Origin: a virus
Length of the DNA stretch: 13,485 bases
IMG/VR virus record: IMGVR_UViG_3300017987_004412
Location: 1-13,485 of that record
Reading direction: 5' to 3' (one strand)
Each line of letters starts with the position of its first letter. Position 1 is the stretch's first letter. Shown piece by piece: positions 1 to 8,317 of this stretch. Below the pieces are notes generated by a model. It was not told where the DNA came from. It saw nothing but the letters and a program-made list of their open reading frames with translations, and made no database searches. Both the position numbers and the translations under genes were made by a program.

Positions 1-32
1 ATACCAGCTATAAGAAAAATCTTCCTACACGA

Positions 33-446
33 ATGCGGACTCATAAATATGCTCTCACTACTGATCTCCCTTTTGCTTCCAAGTATACTTCAGACAGGGA
101 CATTATTAATCATCTCTTTGTAAAGCAACTTCCGGATATTATTCGTAAGAGTGTCCTGAGAAGAGTGAGATTTGTTGGAGACGAATACCGTGCCTGCCGA
201 TATATACTCAACAGATTCCTGATGAGAAAGCAGGTTATATCGAATGTGCTCAAAACGAGGTATAATATACCCGAGGAACAACACAAATTCCTGGTGGATT
301 TTGTAGCAGCCAGATCAAGAGTAGAGCTCTACAAATTGAGAAAGGGGATAGACTTGGACCTCGATAACAATACGAATATGTTGATATCCTTGAGAGATTA
401 TGATCGAGAACTGAATTATGACAGGAATCAGAATAGTCAATACTAA
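33..446 (+). CDS. hypothetical protein (137 aa), no recognisable motif
   Basis: Complete ATG-initiated ORF with the same orientation and spacing as the downstream operon. Its end overlaps the next gene by 29 nt. No conserved motif recognised by eye. Confidence 0.4.
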   Translation: MRTHKYALTTDLPFASKYTSDRDIINHLFVKQLPDIIRKSVLRRVRFVGDEYRACRYILNRFLMRKQVISNVLKTRYNIPEEQHKFLVDFVAARSRVELYKLRKGIDLDLDNNTNMLISLRDYDRELNYDRNQNSQY

Positions 447-843
447 GGTAGCTGCAAACCATAAGTCATTTCGAAATGCTTTGGAAATCGCACTTATGAT
501 GAGTCATAAGTATACCCTCCTTCCAGAGATCTATTCAGTTTTTGGCCGAGATGGTCTTCTTAAGTTCATTGATGTCTTTGGGGGTTGTACCTTTACTGTT
601 CCAAGCCAGGAGGACTTCATGCGGACCGTCATGGAGGTTCAGATATATCTGGAGATGAATAATCGGGAAAAGTTTGATCTGAAGATGAAAGACATTGCGG
701 ACAGATACGGTATAAGCGTGCAGTCGGTTCTCTCTATCTACAAAGATATGAGAAGTACCGTTGGGGCCCTTGAGGGGCTCACCTTGGATGATATTTTTAT
801 CCCTAATGAAGAGTCGGAAGAGACAGACAATGGAAGAGAATAG
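418..843 (+). CDS. Mor-family-like HTH DNA-binding protein (possible transcription activator)
   Basis: Residues FGRDGLLKFIDVFGGCTFTVP then NNREKFDLKMKDIADRYGISVQSVLSIYKDMR resemble the Mor/C-family signature: a GG..hY/T.P core followed by a C-terminal helix-turn-helix with (K/R)YG(I/L)S. Start is uncertain: ATG at 418 or the ATGATG at 496. Confidence 0.45.
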   Translation: MTGIRIVNTKVAANHKSFRNALEIALMMSHKYTLLPEIYSVFGRDGLLKFIDVFGGCTFTVPSQEDFMRTVMEVQIYLEMNNREKFDLKMKDIADRYGISVQSVLSIYKDMRSTVGALEGLTLDDIFIPNEESEETDNGRE

Positions 844-1333
844 CCAAGATCAAGACACGACTGATGTGGGCTTTCTTCGGGATCTTTTCAATGAAGATGA
901 GGTCATGAAGATTGCAAGAACGGTATTCATGAGGAGCCTTGATGATTTCAAGGTAAAGATAAACCTGGCACTTGCGTTTATGACGAAGAAGCGAATTGAG
1001 AATTGGGCAGATCTGTTTAATGATAGATCCGATGCCAAGGAATTAGTAAAGTTCAGACTCCCTTTCATGAATGACAAAGACCTCATTGCAGCTTTCAAGG
1101 AATTTGATGACCAGATGCGAGAGACTGCTCAGGAACTTACCGAGCTTGCCAAGGTGGAAACAAAGTTACGCAGCGGTGATACATACAACATTAACATGCC
1201 AACCAATGTTGTTAATATTTCCCGGGAGCAGGAGATGAGAGAGGCAAAGTCAAGACAGGACGTCAGTCGGATTGTTGATATATTTATTGCAAAGGCCAAA
1301 GAGATTCAGGATAATGACAAAAGTGAAGATTGA
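830..1333 (+). CDS. hypothetical acidic/helical protein; positional candidate for small terminase subunit
   Basis: The ORF-track start at 761 is a TTG. The in-frame ATG at 830 overlaps the upstream stop by 14 nt and has a weak GGAAGAGA SD. The 167-aa charged, helix-rich product lies immediately upstream of TerL and overlaps it, which is the usual position of TerS in T4-like clusters. No diagnostic motif. Confidence 0.4.
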   Translation: MEENSQDQDTTDVGFLRDLFNEDEVMKIARTVFMRSLDDFKVKINLALAFMTKKRIENWADLFNDRSDAKELVKFRLPFMNDKDLIAAFKEFDDQMRETAQELTELAKVETKLRSGDTYNINMPTNVVNISREQEMREAKSRQDVSRIVDIFIAKAKEIQDNDKSED

Positions 1334-4300
1334 TGAGGATCTCCTCAGACAGTGCATACTGCTGATGAAGGATGATGGTCTCTACAATGATTTTGATAAT
1401 CTCTCTATGGAAGAGCAGGAAACTGTGTTACAGTGTCTTCAGGAATATCTGGATGGTGGCCATTCATCCACCCACCTGCAGCTTAAGGAGCCTGACTTCA
1501 AATACACTCCGCCTACTCCCGAAGAATTTTTGACAGATCCGTATTTCATGGGGGAGCGCGCCAAGGATATATACCCGAGGTGGGTGGATGAATTACTTTT
1601 TGTACTCGATCCTGTGAATAGAATAAAAGAGTGGATTTTATGCCTTTCCGGAGATACTTTAATTCCCCTCCTTAATGGTGAAGTATGGAAATTAAAAGAC
1701 TTATATGCATCCTGGTTAAAGAAAGAAGAGCCATTTTGGGTATATTCCGTATCACCCTCGGGTGAGGTAGTTCCGGGGGAGTGTGAATCGGTTGTTAAAT
1801 TCGCAGAGGATCAGCTCTATAAAGTGACTCTTGACAATGGCACTTCTTTCAGGGCAAATGCTTCGCATGAGATGGTTCTACGTAATGGAACAAAATGTAT
1901 GATTAGGGACATGAAGATTGGGGACAGACTGATGCCCTTTCATACTACGGAGAAAGCAATGGATAGGCAGAGATTGGATGGGTATGAGCAAGTTTATCTT
2001 CCTGGACCCCAAAAGTATGCTTATACCCACAGAGTAGTAGGTAAGATGATAGCAGGAGGAGAGTGTCCTTTAGTCATAAATGAAGATAGAGCAGTTCTGC
2101 ACCATAAAGACTTAAATAGGAAGAATAACGATCCATCCAATTTAGAATGGATGGGATGGGCGGAGCACAGAAAGTTACATACAGTAAAGAAGACACCCGA
2201 GCATCTGGAAAAGATAATAGAATCTGCTAGAAAAAGAGCTAAGGATCCCAACTCTAATTTTCAGAGAGCCAAGGTTCGTTTTCTCAAAACTGAAAGAGGT
2301 AGAAAATTATCCATCCGGAATTTATCCAAGGCAAAAGTATCAATTGAAGAACGTAGACGCAGGCTGAAAAAAGCCACCACAATAAGATGGGCAGATCCTG
2401 ATCAACGTAAACAGGCATCTATACGTTGTGCTGAGAGGAGTAAAGGGAATCAGTGGGGAAAGTTGTTGATAGATAACAGCATAACCTTGGAGGATATAAG
2501 AAGAGAGTATTTTAGGCTGGGGGATTTACAAAAAACTAGAAAGTCTCTTAGGATGTCTCGAAATCGAATGGTAAGGGTATTACATGATGCGGATATGACT
2601 ATGAGAGACCTCAAGCAAGAATATAATCTCCACAAGACTAAGTTAAAAGGGAAAAAAGAGATAAGATACAGTAAACTATTAAAGACAGATGTATCAGTTA
2701 ATGATATTTATGAAGAATATGAAAAAGTTGGAACTACAGCAGGAGTATGTAGAAATCTCAATATAGATCACAAGAGACTTTCTAGAATACTTGGCAATGA
2801 AAATCTTGATATCTGCGACCTTAGGGCCAATTACAAAAATCATAGAGTAGTTTCTATTCAAAAAGACAATGTTGAGAATGTCTATTGTTTGAATATACCT
2901 AAATGGGGAAACTTTGCTATTGTTACAGATGAGATAAAAAAATCAGGAGTCTTCTCGGGCAATACGGGGTCCATAGGTCAGGGAAAAAGCTGGGTAAGCA
3001 ATTTTGCTCAAGCATACAAACTCTGTTTCCTGTCCTGTTTGAAGAACCCCCAGCAGTACATTGGCTTGGCCCAGGGAACTTCTATTGTATTCAGCGTATT
3101 CAATCTTACTCTGGCAAAAACCGATCTTACTTTATATAAAGACTTCAAAAGTATCTTAAACTCTTCACCATTCTTTAGAGACAATTTTCCGTTAAAGACA
3201 GTATATGGGTCGGGGGGAGTAGAAAAGGAGATTGACTTCCCGAATGATATAATTTTGGTATCTGGTTCAAATGCGACACATGCACTCAGTTTGAATGTCT
3301 ATAGCTGTACTCTTGATGAAATGAATTTCAGGGACTCCAAGTATGTCATATCTTATGAGGAAAAGAGTCAGGCTTTTGAGCTTTACCGGAACATTCATAC
3401 TCGTATCGTTTCTCGTTTTGTTGGGTACGATCCGGGTATATTGGTCTTGATCTCATCCAGAAAGACAATAACAGACTTTCTGGAGAAGCATATTGAGAAG
3501 CAGTCGAATAAGCAGTATGTGCATATCTCGGACTTTGCTTTATATCAGGTAAAACCTAAGATGCGATTCTTTCCCTCTGGTAGGACGTTCAGAATGGTAA
3601 TAGGGGATAGATCTCATCAGATGACGTCGAGAGTTTTGAGAGATGGCGAAGAAGTAGAGGATGGAGTAAAAGTAGTTGAGGATATACCAGTAGAGTTGAA
3701 GGAAGATGCGGAGCTTGATCCAGATGGCTTTGTTCGGGATGTGATTGGCGCAGCCACTTATCCCTCGTCACCATTGATATCGGTAAAGGAAAGAATCACT
3801 GACTGTACTGACTTTACCAGGTCTCACCCCTTCACTGTTGGATCAGTTTGTCTAAACATTAACACGCCGGATACGATTGAGGAGTATTTAATTCTCGACA
3901 AGCTCGTAAGAGACGCAGGAGCGTCAGGATTGAAGCCCCTCTTTTGTCCAGAGAAACCCAGGATTATTGGGCTGGATTTAGGTTTGACAAAGGATTCAGG
4001 AGCGGTAGTTATGGGATTTCCTCATACTGTCAAGACTGTGAGAACGTCAGTAGAGGATCCTGCCACGGGTAGGCTAATTCAAAAGATGCTTCCAAGATGG
4101 TTCATTTATTACGATTTTTTTCTGGAGATCGCTGCCCCTCAGAAGGGCACTGGGGAAATCGACTTTGAGAAGATTGAGAAATTTGTTATTTATTTGAGAG
4201 ATACTCTCCATTTCAATATAAGGAGGGTATCATCAGACGGTTTTCAATCTCGCCATATGAGACAGAATCTCTACAAGCGGAAGTTCGATGCTGTCATAAC

Positions 4301-4697
4301 CTCAGTAGATCGGGATGATATTGCCTACATTGAGTTACGGCAGGCTATCTTGGAGCGAAGAACGTCCTTCTATTTCTATGAACCTTTCCTTGAGATAGAA
4401 TACTTGTATCATGACCGACGAGGCAAGAAAGGCAAAGTTGATCACTTTAAGGGCAGAAAGAAAGATGTTACTGACGCAGCTGCTGCTGTGGCATTCCATT
4501 GCTCTGAGTTTCCGATGCATGAAGTCTTGGTTCCGGATCAGCGCATGCCTCATTTGAGATCCAGCAGGCTGAAGAAGGATGCCAAAGTTATGGATCTTAA
4601 TTCGAGGCTTCTGGATGACTATGCAAAGACAACATCTAAGGGGAGGAAGTACAGAAGGATCATAGATGTAAATGATACAGGAAATCCCCTTATTTAA
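1314..4697 (+). CDS. terL: terminase large subunit (ATPase/nuclease) interrupted by an in-frame intein
   Basis: The ORF-track start at 1272 is TTG; the first ATG is at 1314 (MTKVKIDEDLL). After removing residues 124-564 (ORF numbering), the extein reads ...RIKEWIL|TGSIGQGKSWVSNF, a GxxxxGKS Walker A. Walker B-like hhhhDE is present (LNVYSCTLDEMNF), the ILVSGS ATPase-coupling region is present, and a long C-terminal nuclease-sized domain follows. Position immediately upstream of a T4 gp20-like portal. Confidence 0.85.
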   Translation: MTKVKIDEDLLRQCILLMKDDGLYNDFDNLSMEEQETVLQCLQEYLDGGHSSTHLQLKEPDFKYTPPTPEEFLTDPYFMGERAKDIYPRWVDELLFVLDPVNRIKEWILCLSGDTLIPLLNGEVWKLKDLYASWLKKEEPFWVYSVSPSGEVVPGECESVVKFAEDQLYKVTLDNGTSFRANASHEMVLRNGTKCMIRDMKIGDRLMPFHTTEKAMDRQRLDGYEQVYLPGPQKYAYTHRVVGKMIAGGECPLVINEDRAVLHHKDLNRKNNDPSNLEWMGWAEHRKLHTVKKTPEHLEKIIESARKRAKDPNSNFQRAKVRFLKTERGRKLSIRNLSKAKVSIEERRRRLKKATTIRWADPDQRKQASIRCAERSKGNQWGKLLIDNSITLEDIRREYFRLGDLQKTRKSLRMSRNRMVRVLHDADMTMRDLKQEYNLHKTKLKGKKEIRYSKLLKTDVSVNDIYEEYEKVGTTAGVCRNLNIDHKRLSRILGNENLDICDLRANYKNHRVVSIQKDNVENVYCLNIPKWGNFAIVTDEIKKSGVFSGNTGSIGQGKSWVSNFAQAYKLCFLSCLKNPQQYIGLAQGTSIVFSVFNLTLAKTDLTLYKDFKSILNSSPFFRDNFPLKTVYGSGGVEKEIDFPNDIILVSGSNATHALSLNVYSCTLDEMNFRDSKYVISYEEKSQAFELYRNIHTRIVSRFVGYDPGILVLISSRKTITDFLEKHIEKQSNKQYVHISDFALYQVKPKMRFFPSGRTFRMVIGDRSHQMTSRVLRDGEEVEDGVKVVEDIPVELKEDAELDPDGFVRDVIGAATYPSSPLISVKERITDCTDFTRSHPFTVGSVCLNINTPDTIEEYLILDKLVRDAGASGLKPLFCPEKPRIIGLDLGLTKDSGAVVMGFPHTVKTVRTSVEDPATGRLIQKMLPRWFIYYDFFLEIAAPQKGTGEIDFEKIEKFVIYLRDTLHFNIRRVSSDGFQSRHMRQNLYKRKFDAVITSVDRDDIAYIELRQAILERRTSFYFYEPFLEIEYLYHDRRGKKGKVDHFKGRKKDVTDAAAAVAFHCSEFPMHEVLVPDQRMPHLRSSRLKKDAKVMDLNSRLLDDYAKTTSKGRKYRRIIDVNDTGNPLI
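1641..2963 (+). mobile_element. intein (441 aa) with HNH homing-endonuclease domain and tandem NUMOD-like DNA-binding repeats, inserted at the TerL P-loop
   Basis: Starts with CLSGDTLIPLLNGEVWKLKDLY, a classic Hint block A with Cys1. HNH motif is LHHKDLNRKNNDPSNLEWMGWAEHRKLH. Three to four ~35-aa repeats (ITLEDIRREYFRLGDL..., MTMRDLKQEYNLHK..., VSVNDIYEEYEKVG...CRNLNIDHKRLSRILG, LDICDLRANYKNHRV) lie at nt ~2472-2862. Block F/G-like end is NVYCLNIPKWGNFAIVTDEIKKSGVFSGN, followed by Thr+1 of TGSIGQGKS. The C-terminal dipeptide is GN rather than the canonical HN. Confidence 0.75.
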
Positions 4698-4715
4698 CCC
4701 AAGGAAAGGGAAAAC

Positions 4716-6569
4716 ATGGCAAAATATGATAGGTTAATGCCCTTATTGCGCCTTTTTTCGAAGTATGATCCAGAGGAGGCTGCGATCCGTCAGCGGAGCT
4801 CATCAGCCAGGTATCAGCGCCGCAGGGAACTTGATGATTTGACTCATCCCTGGAGAACGCTTGAAGAATGGCAGAAGTGGCTGCGGGATTCAGTCTCTGT
4901 ATCCTATGAACGAAAAAAGATGTATAAGGACTATATTGAGATGGATGATAAGTCCATTGAAGTGTCTGGTGCTCTAAGCACCTATGCGGACGATGCTACG
5001 GCAATTGATTGGAAGAAGAAAGTCAATATCGACATCGAGTCTTCAGACTACACAATAAAGAAGGAGCTTGTGGGCCTTATTAATAAGCTCGATGTCTATG
5101 ATATACTATGGGCCGTAGGAAGGAACCTTGCAAAATATGGGGACAACTTTGAAAGGCTGATTTTTGCCAGAAACCCGGATGGGACACCTATCATAGGAGA
5201 AGGTACTCGAGGCATTATTCAGATCCGGTTTGCTGATCCGAAATACATTGAGCGTGTTGAAGATAGGTATTCCAGACTGATGGGTTTTCACGATGCTGAC
5301 CCGTGGTATGTGAAATCGGTTAAAGAGGCAGTAAAGAAAAAGGAATTAGATAAAAAAGTTGCCGAGGCCAAATCTTTGTCCAGAAGAGCCCCGTGGGACT
5401 TTGCTCATTTCAGGATGCTTGGTAGTCGCCGTAACTCCATGTACGGTGACTCCATGATTGAGAATGCCAGGCCAATCTGGAAGATCCTTGATCTCTTGAC
5501 TGAGGTTATTGCCATAACTCGTCTGTCCAGGGCTCCGTCCAGAAGGATTTATTATATTGATGTTGGCGAGGGGACTCCGAATGAGGAAGCTTGGGACACT
5601 GTAAGGTTCTGGAGGCAAAAATTAAAAAAGAATACCTGGATAAATCCAATTACTGGTGAATACAGAAGCATTCATGATCCGAGGTCCCCCAGCGAGGATC
5701 TATTCTGGCCGCTTTTTGGCCAGCGATCGACGTCCAGGGTAGAGGAATTACCCGGCCTGGTTGATGTAAAAGAGATGGCTGATATCAACCTCATGTTTAT
5801 ACGACTGTTCTCAGCTCTCCGGATCCCGCCGGCTTATTTTGGTTTCATGTTTGAGGGAGGTGCATATGGAACGACACCCAATAATGCGAGAACGTTGACT
5901 TTACAGGATCTGCGATACGCAAGAACAATCAAGAGACTTCAGAACTCGATTGTTCGCGGGTTCCATAGAATATTTGATGTTCATCTGGCTTTGCTTGGAG
6001 TGGATAAGTCGAGGTTCAGGGGTAAGTATAAAGTCCTTTTGACACCTGTCTCAACCGATGAGGAGATGCAACGGGCTGAGATTATGGCGTCCAATCTTAC
6101 TCAGGCATCGCAATGGGGTGACATTGTAGATCGTTTTGGAGCAAACAAAGAGGCAATGCTTAGACATGTCCTGAAAGAAGTCTTAGGGTTCTCGTCTGCA
6201 GAGACTAGAAAGTTTACCAAGGCCCCCCCTCCTGGAAAAGAGGGAGCTCCAGGTGGTTTAGCCCCCGGTGATATCAATCCCTACGCGATGATGATGCAAC
6301 AGCAGGCAGGACAGCAACCTGGTCAGACTCCAGGTGAACAACAACCTCAGGGAGCCCAACAGCCCCCGGGTGAGAAGGAGACACCAGAGGACTATTCATT
6401 AGAGCTGGCAAACATGGTAGAGAGAATTACTGAAAACCCGGAGTTGGCAGAGGCTGTCTTGAATACTTTAAATCGGAATGTTGATGTTGATGAGAGTATC
6501 TATATGGATGATGACCCTCTTCCCGGAAATGATACTGAGTATCCTGATGATGAGGATGATAGTTTATGA
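4716..6569 (+). CDS. portal protein, T4 gp20-like
   Basis: RBS AAGGAAAGGG precedes the ATG. Internal motif ITRLSRAPSRRIYYIDVGEGTP matches the T4 gp20 core IYRITRAPDRRVWYVDTG closely. LRIPPAYF parallels gp20 LRVPLSRIP. Lies immediately downstream of TerL. Gln/Pro/Gly-rich linker and acidic C-terminal tail (DDDPLPGNDTEYPDDEDDSL). Confidence 0.85.
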   Translation: MAKYDRLMPLLRLFSKYDPEEAAIRQRSSSARYQRRRELDDLTHPWRTLEEWQKWLRDSVSVSYERKKMYKDYIEMDDKSIEVSGALSTYADDATAIDWKKKVNIDIESSDYTIKKELVGLINKLDVYDILWAVGRNLAKYGDNFERLIFARNPDGTPIIGEGTRGIIQIRFADPKYIERVEDRYSRLMGFHDADPWYVKSVKEAVKKKELDKKVAEAKSLSRRAPWDFAHFRMLGSRRNSMYGDSMIENARPIWKILDLLTEVIAITRLSRAPSRRIYYIDVGEGTPNEEAWDTVRFWRQKLKKNTWINPITGEYRSIHDPRSPSEDLFWPLFGQRSTSRVEELPGLVDVKEMADINLMFIRLFSALRIPPAYFGFMFEGGAYGTTPNNARTLTLQDLRYARTIKRLQNSIVRGFHRIFDVHLALLGVDKSRFRGKYKVLLTPVSTDEEMQRAEIMASNLTQASQWGDIVDRFGANKEAMLRHVLKEVLGFSSAETRKFTKAPPPGKEGAPGGLAPGDINPYAMMMQQQAGQQPGQTPGEQQPQGAQQPPGEKETPEDYSLELANMVERITENPELAEAVLNTLNRNVDVDESIYMDDDPLPGNDTEYPDDEDDSL

Positions 6570-6856
6570 GATACACCAAATTGATACAAGAGATAAACAA
6601 AAGATCTAAAGTCCCTACGAAGGTTATCACCAAAGTTCTGCACACTATGGTTGAAGTGACCAAGGAGACTCTTGTGGAGGGGGATTTCATAAGTCTGGCA
6701 AATCTTGGAACCATGGAGCTTGAATATCTGCCGGCCAGCTTCCATATGGGGCAGAAGTCTCAGCAGGGTCGGATTAAGTTTACTGCACACCCCTTTGTTC
6801 TTAAAGAGATGGTAGCTGGGGCAATGAAATTACTTGAAGAGGAGGAACGGGAATGA
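6566..6856 (+). CDS. HU/IHF-like (DNABII) DNA-binding protein
   Basis: Length (96 aa) and layout match bacterial HU: N-terminal helices (MRYTKLIQEINKRSKVPTKVITKVLHTMVEVTKETLVEGD), then the beta-arm region (ISLANLGTMELEYLPASFHMGQKSQQGRIKFTAHPFVLKEMV; compare GDKVQLVGFGTFEVRER...IKIPASKVPAFKPGKALK). The ATG overlaps the portal stop (ATGA) and is preceded by a GAGGATGA SD. Confidence 0.5.
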   Translation: MRYTKLIQEINKRSKVPTKVITKVLHTMVEVTKETLVEGDFISLANLGTMELEYLPASFHMGQKSQQGRIKFTAHPFVLKEMVAGAMKLLEEEERE

Positions 6857-7041
6857 AAACAGAAGAGAGATCCTTTAATGACACGGAGAACAAAGGACGT
6901 GATGCCGTAATTTGCCCTCAATGTATTGGCAAGGGGCAAGTAACATTGGGCGGCGCCGTTCTTGTCTGCGGGTTATGCAGAGGTGCGGGCTGTATTCTCA
7001 AGGAAACAGACAAAGATGAACCTCAATTGTTACTGGATTAA
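6853..7041 (+). CDS. small DnaJ-type zinc-finger protein (2x CxxCxGxG)
   Basis: CPQCIGKG and CGLCRGAG are two copies of the DnaJ central cysteine-rich CxxCxGxG unit, 62 aa total. Strong SD GAGGAGGA; the ATG overlaps the upstream TGA. Confidence 0.5.
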   Translation: MKTEERSFNDTENKGRDAVICPQCIGKGQVTLGGAVLVCGLCRGAGCILKETDKDEPQLLLD

Positions 7042-7047
7042 GACAGA

Positions 7048-7542
7048 ATGATTGGCACCTATAAATACTTCAGAGTTCCCCCATGGATGGAAGTAGCCTT
7101 TAAAGAATTGGGGGTTGAGGAAATACCAGGTTTGGAAAGTAATCCAAAAATAGATAAATATCTGGCTGTTACTGGCATGTCTCCGGATGATTCTATCCCC
7201 TGGTGCGCAGCTTATTTGTCCTGGGTATTGGAGCAGACCGGTATTGAGAGTACAAGGAAAGCGAATGCCAGGTCTTATCTGTCGTGGGGAAAAGAAATTG
7301 TTGAGCCTAGATTGGGCTGCATTGTTGTCTTATGGAGAGTATCTTTGAATTCCGAAAGTGGTCATGTTGGTTTTTTCTGTGGATTTTCGGATGACAGCAG
7401 AATATTCTTGCTGGGCGGAAATCAATCGGATAAGGTGGGTATTGCATCTTATTCTACTGGTAGGATTTTGAGCTATAAGTGGCCGTTGAAGGTCGGTGTA
7501 AGTAATGAAACTATAAACGAAAGGGGATTGAACGATGAGTAA
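7048..7542 (+). CDS. TIGR02594-family / CHAP-like peptidoglycan hydrolase (endolysin or virion-associated lysin)
   Basis: Pattern PWCAAYLSWVLEQTG...SYLSWGKEI...GCIVVLWR...GHVGFFCGF...LLGGNQSDKVGI. This is a Cys nucleophile after Trp followed by a downstream His, characteristic of the CHAP/NlpC-P60-related TIGR02594 phage-associated family. Confidence 0.6.
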   Translation: MIGTYKYFRVPPWMEVAFKELGVEEIPGLESNPKIDKYLAVTGMSPDDSIPWCAAYLSWVLEQTGIESTRKANARSYLSWGKEIVEPRLGCIVVLWRVSLNSESGHVGFFCGFSDDSRIFLLGGNQSDKVGIASYSTGRILSYKWPLKVGVSNETINERGLNDE

Positions 7543-8257
7543 GAAAGAAGAAATTTTGAACAATCTGGATATTGTTGAGAAGAAACTTTCTAACGAGGCA
7601 AAGGAGATTGAGAAAGAAGTCTTGGATGATTCGGAAAAGAAAGCAACGGTTTCGGTTCAGGCACCAAAGGTTGAAAAACTCTCGCAGGAGGATCTCAGCA
7701 AAAGGGTTGTATTCTTGGAGCAGAAGCTGGATTCCATTGCCAAGGCTTTGACAGAACATCATGCACATCTCAAGGGTGTTGTTCATCACGGATTTACAAG
7801 GATGGAGGCTGTCCTGAATATCCTGAGTGAGAAGGATATTGTAAATGAGGACGGTCTTCGTAGGGGGTATAAGCGAGTTACTGAGTACCAGGTAAAGATT
7901 AATGAGGTACTGAGCGGCAGGGAGCCTATGAAAAATAAGATTGAGAAGGTACATAAATGGAATGAAGATGAGAACAGGATACCTATCCGTATGACTGATA
8001 TTGGGCTGCCTGCATATCTTATAAAGAACCCGGATAATCTGACCTTGGATGAGAGGATAGAACTTGCAAAGAGGGGTGATTTGGATAGCCAGGTTTTTAC
8101 TATGCTGGCTCAGGAGAATCTCTCTAAGAAATCACCTACCGAGGTTAGTACCGGTTCCGGGGTGGTGGATATGTCACATAAGGTTGATATGGAGATTGTT
8201 AAAGAGAAAAAATCGGAGAAAAAAGCAGAAAATCAGGAAGACCCTATTGACAACTAG
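7535..8257 (+). CDS. highly charged coiled-coil protein (scaffolding-protein-like by composition and position)
   Basis: SD AAGGGGA 6 nt upstream; the ATG overlaps the upstream TAA. 240 aa, Lys/Glu-rich with predicted long helices (EEILNNLDIVEKKLSNEAKEIEKEVLDD...). It sits between portal and downstream genes, where T4-like phages place gp22-type scaffold. No diagnostic motif. Confidence 0.5.
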   Translation: MSKKEEILNNLDIVEKKLSNEAKEIEKEVLDDSEKKATVSVQAPKVEKLSQEDLSKRVVFLEQKLDSIAKALTEHHAHLKGVVHHGFTRMEAVLNILSEKDIVNEDGLRRGYKRVTEYQVKINEVLSGREPMKNKIEKVHKWNEDENRIPIRMTDIGLPAYLIKNPDNLTLDERIELAKRGDLDSQVFTMLAQENLSKKSPTEVSTGSGVVDMSHKVDMEIVKEKKSEKKAENQEDPIDN

Positions 8258-8317
8258 GGTTTTTTGATTATATTAATTAGGGTAGAAGTTTATAATCTTA
8301 GAGTAGGGAGTAAAATA
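8243..8317 (+). promoter_or_regulatory. intergenic regulatory region: weak hairpin + T-run, consensus TATAAT, SD for downstream zinc-ribbon gene
   Basis: CCCTA-ttgacaac-TAGGG followed by TTTTTT around 8244-8266. TTGATT at 8264-8269 and a perfect TATAAT at 8291-8296, but the spacing is 21 nt, so not canonical sigma70 geometry. AGGGAGT SD at 8305-8311 ahead of the GTG at 8318. Confidence 0.2.

Follow-up and report, generated by a model that had tools for sequence, protein, structure and literature searches.

Large terminase (TerL) genes are the commonest hosts of inteins in phages, with insertion sites at the P-loop of the ATPase. LAGLIDADG endonucleases dominate the actinophage inteins (712/784), and in-frame HNH inteins, which have been known since 1997, are found in actinophage TerLs as well (bioRxiv 10.1101/2025.01.02.630785). 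The penultimate His of phage inteins is often replaced by Gly, Lys or Ser, and the Bethlehem gp51 intein with a penultimate Gly splices completely while its G316H mutant is slower (PMC5050341). The residues seen at position F:4 rank as Asp > Cys > Trp (PMC4031507), and the HNH intein in the dCTP deaminase of cyanophage CL131 self-excises in E. coli (PMC6293099). A penultimate Gly, an HNH nuclease and a P-loop site in TerL are each on record for published inteins, and this prior literature takes away most of the surprise of a Gly-Asn HNH intein in TerL such as the one that we describe here from the IMG/VR virus record IMGVR_UViG_3300017987_004412 (positions 1 to 13,485, referred to below as the window, meaning the whole stretch of DNA that was analysed). 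We consider that nucleotides (nt) 1641-2963 of the window are very probably a mobile class-1-type intein in a large terminase gene, carried by an uncultivated tailed phage with relatives of about 200 kb. The boundaries, fold, domain make-up and lineage conservation of this element can be described directly, and it is predicted from its sequence to be competent in splicing. In terms of annotation, this makes the 3.4-kb open reading frame (ORF) a 686-amino acid (aa) terminase plus a 441-aa intein, with the parts of the gene placed as follows.

1314-4697, plus strand: TerL precursor ORF, from the ATG at 1314 to the TAA at 4697; 1127 aa including the intein, with a spliced product of 686 aa.
1314-1640, plus strand: N-extein, ending in ...NRIKEWIL, which is strand beta1 of the ATPase, as aligned with intein-less TerLs.
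1641-2963, plus strand: intein, 441 aa, from Cys1 to Asn441.
2964-4697, plus strand: C-extein, beginning with Thr+1.
2967-2990, plus strand: Walker A motif GSIGQGKS, residues +2 to +9 of the C-extein.
3306-3329, plus strand: Walker B motif CTLDEMNF (core LDEMNF), in the C-extein.

The frame of 1127 codons runs without interruption in the ORF list and translation, and its product is identical to the database protein P0009, for which PF27249 and PF14890 are the precomputed domains. The window is a complete metagenomic contig, and P0009 lies on a contig of the same 13,485-nt length. The spliced protein was matched by no model in the Pfam copy searched. In tblastn, the spliced 686-aa sequence was aligned with annotated phage large terminases, which came from Vibrio siphophage, at 29–32% identity over 85–91% of the length (E down to 6e-56), and the alignment was unbroken across the junction. 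This terminase homology, the Walker A and Walker B motifs and a T4-type portal gene (portal_T4) lying directly downstream of the ORF together identify the protein as TerL.

The intein starts with CLSGDTLIPLL (nt 1641) and ends with ...GVFSGN (nt 2963), after which TGSIGQGKS follows. These are exactly the boundaries proposed in an earlier note on this DNA, which read an intein beginning CLSGDTLI at the junction EWIL/.../TGSIGQGKS (a slash marks a splice junction here and below). The comparison with intein-less TerL alleles had been set beforehand as decisive between an intein and native TerL sequence, and it supports the intein because homologous TerLs lack the segment altogether. Three metagenomic TerLs of 682–700 aa with 55% identity (P0010, P0011 and P0012) have no gap at the junction, where they read IREWII-TGAIGSGKS, ITEWLI-TGAIGTGKS and IREWII-SGSIGSGKS (the upstream side is IREWII in P0010 and ITEWLI in P0011). 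The more distant Vibrio phage TerLs (32% identity) are likewise continuous through L/T, with YIEIVL-TGGIGTAKT in Vibrio phage VHB1 against IKEWIL/TGSIGQGKS in the window, and the pattern of the intein-less proteins can be given as an ungapped ...EW[IL][IL]-[TS]G.IG.GK[ST]. In the case of P0012 (locus L003), the intein-less allele lies in the same order of small ORFs, TerL, T4 portal and HU-like genes, and its empty site is identical at 35/60 nt to the joined flanks of the window, whose joined-extein site reads CCTGTGAATAGAATAAAAGAGTGGATTTTA followed directly by ACGGGGTCCATAGGTCAGGGAAAAAGCTGG.

The insertion point L/T lies one residue ahead of the Gly that opens Walker A, with strand beta1 (KEWIL) on one side and the P-loop on the other, and the native Thr there provides the +1 nucleophile position, for which the intein-less alleles have Thr or Ser. 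The earlier description of the intein as splitting Walker A therefore has to be amended, as the motif GSIGQGKS is intact and abutted by the intein, which separates it from strand beta1. It remains reasonable, as had been inferred, that there is no ATPase before splicing, and we propose that the mature P-loop is formed only after splicing and that the ATPase cannot fold until the intein has gone.

The splicing blocks of the intein are located as follows, with site a used for this insertion site in TerL.

1641-1946, plus strand: N-terminal splicing half, with blocks A and B.
1641-1679, plus strand: block A, CLSGDTLIPLLNG, with Cys1; invariant among the 20 site-a inteins.
1839-1880, plus strand: block B, GTSFRANASHEMVL, with Asn73 at B:7 and His76 at B:10.
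2847-2963, plus strand: C-terminal splicing half, with blocks F and G.
2877-2924, plus strand: block F, NVYCLNIPKWGNFAIV, with Cys416 at F:4 and Gly for the usual block-F His.
Between blocks F and G, plus strand: F-G loop TDEIKKS, with Lys434/Lys435.
2946-2963, plus strand: block G, GVFSGN, with Ser439 at G:5, Gly440 at G:6 and Asn441 at G:7, followed by Thr +1.

The Pfam Intein_splicing model matches with 46.6 bits (cut-off 35.8) and the match spans both ends of the insertion. A family profile was needed to find solved structures, as single-sequence phmmer searches with the intein or its nuclease half gave marginal hits only. The profile (A1), built from five members of the lineage after deletion of the nuclease, matched a halophilic DnaE intein (6e-8), Npu DnaE (6e-7) and Ssp DnaB (8e-7) in the PDB. 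In the A1 alignment, DGSSLRANADH of block B is placed with DGSxIRATKDH of solved class 1 inteins and NVYCLTVPEAGNFAI of block F with NVYDIGVERDHNFAL of Npu DnaE. Blocks A, B, F and G, on which the earlier note had made its reading depend, are all found on formal alignment to solved inteins. His76 (B:10) of the block B T-x-x-H motif aligns with the DnaE and DnaB inteins, and position B:7 is Asn instead of Thr in 20/20 members of the lineage. At the C-terminal end, NVYCLNIPKWGNFAIV is followed by GVFSGN/T with the terminal Asn and the +1 Thr. The Hint fold was recovered in an AlphaFold2 model of the intein plus five flanking residues on each side, built from a 44-sequence alignment (mean pLDDT, the predicted local distance difference test score, of 84.3, and above 90 over the Hint domain), and Foldseek was concordant.

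We placed the intein amongst its relatives with the whole intein plus short flanks as the query. HMMER, run exhaustively over 1.84 billion cluster representatives, returned 3264 proteins at E <= 1e-3 (219 of them at E <= 1e-30), and a word-indexed profile search added 120 further proteins. From both searches 379 inteins were parsed, and 20 of these occupy site a. These 20 inteins are 30–60% identical to each other, include full-length and mini forms, and come from contigs of up to more than 100 kb; the closest to the window are the full-length P0138–P0141, with 52–56% identity. Cys is invariant at positions 1 and F:4 in all 20 of them, as are Asn at B:7 and G:7, His at B:10 and Ser at G:5, while B:12 is Met, Phe or Leu. 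The F-G loop is 6–19 residues long compared with two residues in 141 canonical relatives, and in all 20 there is an Arg or Lys in it, one to three positions ahead of block G. Position G:6 is Gly in 12, Ser in seven and Arg in one; the +1 residue is Thr in 19 and Ser in one; and the block-F His (of HNF) is kept in 2/20.

The Gly-Asn ending with Thr at +1, which had been read from the sequence earlier and which the translation bears out, is therefore a trait of the lineage. The penultimate His (G:6) is absent from this intein, which has Gly440, and it should be noted that this His is a common feature of inteins and not an obligatory one. The ending had been regarded as an isolated oddity in need of special compensation, and this part of the earlier interpretation fails, as G:6 is Gly, Ser or Arg in all 20 site-a inteins and phage inteins with a penultimate Gly splice well (PMC5050341). 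What had been missed were the deviations that vary together with it, namely the longer F-G loop, Asn at B:7, Cys at F:4 and the lost block-F His. That this set of variant residues is kept across 30–60% identity in an essential gene argues that the site-a inteins splice. Judged by their conservation, Ser G:5 and the Arg or Lys of the F-G loop (Lys434/Lys435 here) are the best candidates for residues that may compensate for the missing histidines.

The site-a mini-inteins are 146–190 aa long and keep fragments of the helix-turn-helix (HTH) tail, e.g. ISRNAVVRLLRDAGLTLDDVKSGYRNH in P0031; because these fragments are retained, the mini-inteins are deletion derivatives of full HNH inteins, as the homing cycle predicts. 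In the window, the intein is full length and the endonuclease and its DNA-binding arm lie between the two splicing halves.

1968-2183, plus strand: HNH (His-Me finger) nuclease core, aa ~110-181, matched by Pfam HNH_3 and PHROG HNH families.
2091-2180, plus strand: HNH motif, AVLHHKDLNRKNNDPSNLEWMGWAEHRKLH, within the nuclease core.
2184-2477, plus strand: basic all-helical region, aa 182-279, between the nuclease and the HTH units, with one W-x-D-P motif.
2478-2636, plus strand: HTH unit 1, aa 280-332, predicted as a three-helix HTH plus a tail helix.
2637-2690, plus strand: linker between the HTH units, 18 aa, basic and Lys-rich.
2691-2846, plus strand: HTH unit 2, aa 351-402, a tandem duplicate of unit 1.

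The nuclease is predicted to be of the HNH/His-Me finger type and I-HmuI-like, in agreement with the earlier assignment as HNH and not LAGLIDADG. Pfam HNH_3 matches with 24.9 bits (cut-off 24.8), several PHROG HNH families match the nuclease core (best 4e-10), and AVLHHKDLNRKNNDPSNLEWMGWAEHRKLH keeps all of the invariant or nearly invariant positions of 40 homologues (HH, N, P, N, H and H). An alignment of the nuclease plus HTH part (A4) was discarded as the HTH part was misaligned onto block F/G of homologues, and a shorter core query was modelled instead. This model (pLDDT 85) has a strand-strand-helix arrangement at the motif; its best PDB match is a weak one to I-HmuI (1u3e; probability 0.90, E 0.11, 21% identity), and the next, I-PpoI, the HNH domain of IscB and McrA, are all His-Me finger proteins but are also weak, with none at E <= 0.001. 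Antisense ORFs within the intein (nt 2021-2251 and 2450-2635, minus strand) were considered as an antisense endonuclease and rejected, having no family match.

The basic region (nt 2184-2477) is without a Pfam match; P0005 and the GyrB intein P0008 have RW.DP-type repeats, a motif repeated in other HNH inteins, to which it can be aligned, and its helices are predicted at pLDDT 60–79. Taken with the parts that follow it (aa 181-405), it contributes to a total of 58 Lys+Arg against 29 Asp+Glu. The two HTH units can be aligned over 52 aa without gaps (13/52 identical, BLOSUM62 score 71, z = 12, with 0/2000 shuffles reaching the score). The four closest inteins, P0138–P0141, have a single HTH unit where the window has an insertion of about 68 aa comprising unit 2 and the linker, and unit 2 is an old tandem duplication specific to the lineage of the window with respect to these relatives. 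No DNA-level tandem repeat was found in nt 1600-3000 by Tandem Repeats Finder, and no NUMOD or HTH family of Pfam matches the window's own repeat region. The HTH assignment is a prediction drawn from the structure model and from P0002, where the homologous units match HTH_29 (37.5 bits) and HTH_23 (27.6 bits). Three to four NUMOD-like HTH repeats of about 35 aa had been suggested for nt ~2472-2862, and of this suggestion the modular helical units after the nuclease stand, and the number, length and NUMOD likeness are replaced by two 52-aa units without a NUMOD match in Pfam. The impression of three or four shorter repeats arises because the tails of the units (DLKxxYxxH; MTMRDLKQEY, LDICDLRANY) resemble their heads (ITLEDIRREY, VSVNDIYEEY). 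Other relatives have two to three HTH units or carry zinc-finger-like CxxC...HxxxxH modules instead, and the DNA-binding end of the nuclease is therefore modular. Over the HTH-repeat part of the intein (window 2401-3000) the G+C content is 0.34–0.35 compared with about 0.42–0.45 in the flanking terminase, and the AT skew is strongly positive because of A-rich Lys, Asn and Arg codons.

The alternative that survives best is that the intein splices and its endonuclease no longer homes, i.e. that the intein is fixed and the nuclease is decaying toward a mini-intein. Such decay does occur, as the site-a mini-inteins with HTH remnants attest, and the HNH_3 match barely at its threshold, the escape of the HTH units from Pfam, the low G+C of the HTH region (0.34–0.35 against about 0.43) and the lower confidence of the basic-arm helices could all be read in this manner. 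However, the invariant residues of the HNH motif are all present, the nuclease region is in frame and full length, and the change seen in the HTH module is a duplication, not a deletion. We regard the loss of homing as possible though doubtful, and favour a nuclease that is presumably still active, with intein-less TerL alleles as its presumed target.

A further alternative concerns the chemistry. The intein may follow a class-3-like or hybrid path in which Cys416 has a role and, with His76 (B:10) and Ser439 (G:5), corresponds to the Cys-His-Thr triad of class 3, which would place the lineage midway between class 1 and class 3. The defining residues of class 3 inteins are Cys at F:4 and Thr at G:5; these inteins prefer Thr or Ser at +1 and occur in the P-loops of phage-type ATPases including terminases (PMC2807308), and the site-a inteins have an invariant Cys F:4, Ser G:5 and Thr/Ser +1 in 20/20 cases. 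Nine of nine inteins of the same clade without a nucleophile at position 1 (eight with Pro1 and one with Asp1) also have Cys F:4, and amongst representatives clustered at 50% identity the penultimate His is present in 133/143 with Asp at F:4, in 10/49 with Cys and in 0/17 with Thr (mostly Lys instead), although these counts ignore shared ancestry. Against this, Cys1 is invariant in the lineage, as expected if it is used; there is no Trp at B:12 (Met, Phe or Leu is found); and the Hint sequence and fold are closer to class 1 than to class 3 structures. Many relatives, such as the RtcB inteins and P0021, combine Cys1 and F:4 Cys with a canonical His-Asn/Cys ending, which makes F:4 Cys undiagnostic, and for this reason we dropped it as a class 3 marker. 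With Cys at position 1 and Met at B:12, Cys at F:4 and Ser at G:5 in place of the Trp-Cys-Thr (WCT) set, the intein is filed as class 1 by the defining criterion. Standard class 1 chemistry is most likely, and a class-3-like path is improbable in our judgement.

We also think it a slim chance that the site-a inteins are a natural link between the two classes, with Cys1 plus a Cys(F:4)-His(B:10)-Ser(G:5) triad, Thr at +1, and the penultimate and block-F His gone. If this were true, and Cys416 took part in the first acyl transfer, it would mean a stepwise origin of class 3 chemistry from class 1, a route which has been argued to be implausible (PMC7664689).

We note separately the HNH inteins without a position-1 nucleophile, which are about 31–39% identical to that of the window: P0142, P0144, P0156, P0157, P0205, P0234, P0237 and P0249 with Pro1 (NL/PVHKDT.IPLLDG...), and P0235 with Asp1, all with boundaries from the HMM alignment only. 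All have Cys at F:4, none has Thr at G:5, and Trp B:12 is present in some only; the Pro1 inteins have a penultimate Gly, Ser, Ala or Lys, and P0235 keeps the His. These residues give them the look of class-3-type inteins that lack the WCT triplet.

Several observations weigh against a working, mobile class 1 intein. The B:7 Thr, block-F His and G:6 His are all absent together, as is the F:4 Asp, and an individual copy could be slow or conditional in splicing. That Ser G:5 and the loop Arg/Lys compensate, as proposed, is read purely from conservation among relatives. On the nuclease side, HNH_3 is only just at its cut-off, the fold match to I-HmuI is weak, and the HTH units of this sequence are unrecognised by Pfam.

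Pressed further, the loss of the penultimate His, block-F His and B:7 Thr could mean that the intein is a splicing-defective relic whose catalytic helpers have been lost, leaving an immature precursor and a non-functional TerL copy, for example in a defective or decaying phage, and the contig, at 13.5 kb, is short and has no close DNA relative among phage records. We find this very unlikely given that the 1127-codon frame is uninterrupted, that the same substitutions are fixed in 20 inteins of 30–60% identity, which points to purifying selection on a working active site, and that in one phage intein splicing is better with a penultimate Gly than with His put in its place (PMC5050341). That the segment is no intein at all and belongs to this TerL family as a native insertion domain, a reading for which its in-frame position alone could be cited, can be dismissed, as the closest TerLs are without it and have seamless junctions, the Hint fold is present with Cys1, the terminal Asn and the +1 Thr, and homologous inteins are found in unrelated hosts (RtcB, GyrB, gp25-like proteins, caspase-like proteins and ThyX).

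For the class 1 intein that we prefer, the path would begin with translation of a 1127-aa precursor in which the 441-aa Hint domain with its nuclease sits between KEWIL and TGSIGQGKS. Cys1 would form a thioester, Thr+1 would take over the N-extein by transesterification, cyclisation of Asn441 would free the intein, and an O-to-N acyl shift would complete the ligation to give a 686-aa TerL with a normal Walker A. Here the missing Thr (B:7), Asp (F:4), block-F His and penultimate His are Asn, Cys, Gly and Gly, and lineage-specific residues would have taken over their roles; at the Asn cyclisation step, we infer that Ser G:5 and the Arg/Lys of the enlarged F-G loop may compensate. The I-HmuI-like HNH endonuclease, with its basic helical arm and two HTH units, would nick or cut intein-less TerL alleles in co-infection and so lead to homing, and the mini-inteins at the same site would be decayed descendants of the HNH intein.

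The site is one of several: the PF27249 TerL family is a hot spot for inteins, which occupy four or more sites within about 10 residues of the P-loop. These are L/TG, used by the intein described here; V/CSGG one residue upstream (P0021); SG/SIG, with about 50 near-identical entries (90%-identity clustering) in TerLs of about 825 aa from contigs of about 200 kb; and the classic GK/T site, which holds LAGLIDADG inteins (P0017 and P0019). In P0003 and P0190 two P-loop inteins lie eight residues apart, with three inteins in total in P0190, and other TerLs of the family have further inteins near Walker B. The proteins that document the hot spot are P0003, P0190, P0138, P0140, P0143, P0164, P0017, P0019 and P0087-like. 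The TerL intein of Bacillus phage vB_BceM-HSE3 was considered as a same-site case and rejected, since it occupies a different site before Walker B. The HSE3 gene (L001, MF418016.1, 1447-4409) is annotated as three coding sequences named 'intein splicing region protein', hypothetical and 'putative terminase large subunit'; the junctions of its intein are GKDVF/CLTGST...VVVHN/CAMLDE, and the mid-part is broken by frame changes and stops, reflecting either a decayed endonuclease or sequencing errors.

Around the terminase, the gene order of the window is a Mor-family activator, two small ORFs, the 1127-aa ORF, the T4-type portal, HU-like and CHAP-domain genes, and further genes, which is a phage late-gene layout. 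The order TerL–portal–HU is common to the window and to the intein-less relative P0012 (L003), for which the longest contig is 205 kb, and this suggests a large (jumbo-like) phage as the source of the window. No match was obtained when the whole window was compared with phage records by megablast, and there is no close DNA relative amongst them. The neighbouring genes are as follows.

418-843: Mor-family late activator, upstream of the terminase.
6566-6853: HU-like protein, immediately after the portal gene.
7048-7539: CHAP-domain protein, beyond the HU-like gene.
8494-9420, plus strand: 309-aa ORF of the PHROG 'transposase' family phrog_4285 (1.8e-32), weakly matching Pfam Transposase_20 (IS110 family).
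9420-12104, plus strand: 895-aa ORF with a Major Vault Protein (MVP) shoulder domain (PF11978, 95.6 bits, aa 573-686).

The transposase-like ORF lies directly 5' of the MVP-like ORF with an overlap of a few bases. The latter also has weaker Vault_3 repeat and SPFH/Band_7 matches and no PHROG match, and an MVP/SPFH-like protein within a phage structural-gene region is unusual.

Current understanding is not overturned by this intein or its lineage. What is added to intein biology is a lineage of at least 20 members from uncultivated phages, whose active site is non-canonical in a coherent manner and in which all stages of the homing cycle are seen at one site as a full HNH intein, a duplicated-HTH intein and mini-inteins with endonuclease remnants. 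The useful part is the set rather than the single copy, as it offers ready comparative material for what substitutes for the penultimate His, and the mini-inteins of 146–190 aa with Thr at +1 could be candidates for protein engineering.

In comparison with the known systems, the mycobacteriophage P-loop inteins TerL1-a and TerL1-b (Kelley et al. 2016, PMC5050341) are alike in lying in the TerL ATPase domain at the Walker A region, in the need for splicing to form the active site and in the presence of a homing endonuclease, and loss of the penultimate His is frequent amongst phage inteins. They differ in that they are found in Terminase_1 or Terminase_6 proteins whereas the TerL of the window is of the PF27249 type beside a T4-like portal, with an insertion point eight residues upstream of the classic GK/T site, at the beta1/P-loop junction. 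The endonuclease domain of the tested TerL1-b and TerL1-c inteins is identifiable and untyped, whereas that of the window is HNH. The Bethlehem gp51 intein, in the recombination directionality factor (RDF), is a class 1 intein with the same Gly-Asn ending in a different host protein (PMC5050341).

Amongst inteins whose Hint domain carries an HNH nuclease in frame, the GyrB-type P0008 is a detectable homologue of the window intein (E 2.6e-7, 28% identity) and the CL131 intein is a distant relative (26.6% identity over aa 1-260 of the window intein). For the Chlamydomonas eugametos ClpP intein, His is reportedly needed for splicing in E. coli. This is another class 1 intein with a Gly-Asn ending (Wang & Liu 1997, cited in PMC5050341), again in a different host protein. 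The cyanobacterial GyrB intein, as cited from Dalgaard 1997 in bioRxiv 10.1101/2025.01.02.630785, and the CL131 dCTP deaminase intein (PMC6293099) both have basic helical repeats that come after the in-frame HNH. Unlike the window intein, they have the canonical Asp F:4 and a His-Asn ending (VYDLEV...FVHN/S in P0008) and no duplicated HTH. With class 3 inteins (WCT; Tori et al. 2010, PMC2807308) the common features are Cys at F:4, a G:5 residue with a hydroxyl, Thr at +1 and the phage ATPase P-loop as a site, and the window intein differs from them in having Cys1, no Trp B:12, Ser rather than Thr at G:5 and no penultimate His, which class 3 keeps. Finally, I-HmuI of Bacillus phage SPO1 (PDB 1u3e) is alike in belonging to the HNH_3 family and, as far as the layout of the window nuclease is predicted, in the order of its parts, where a beta-beta-alpha-metal core precedes helices and an HTH at the C-terminus; it is free-standing and intron-encoded with one HTH, whereas the nuclease of the window lies within a Hint domain and has two HTH units.

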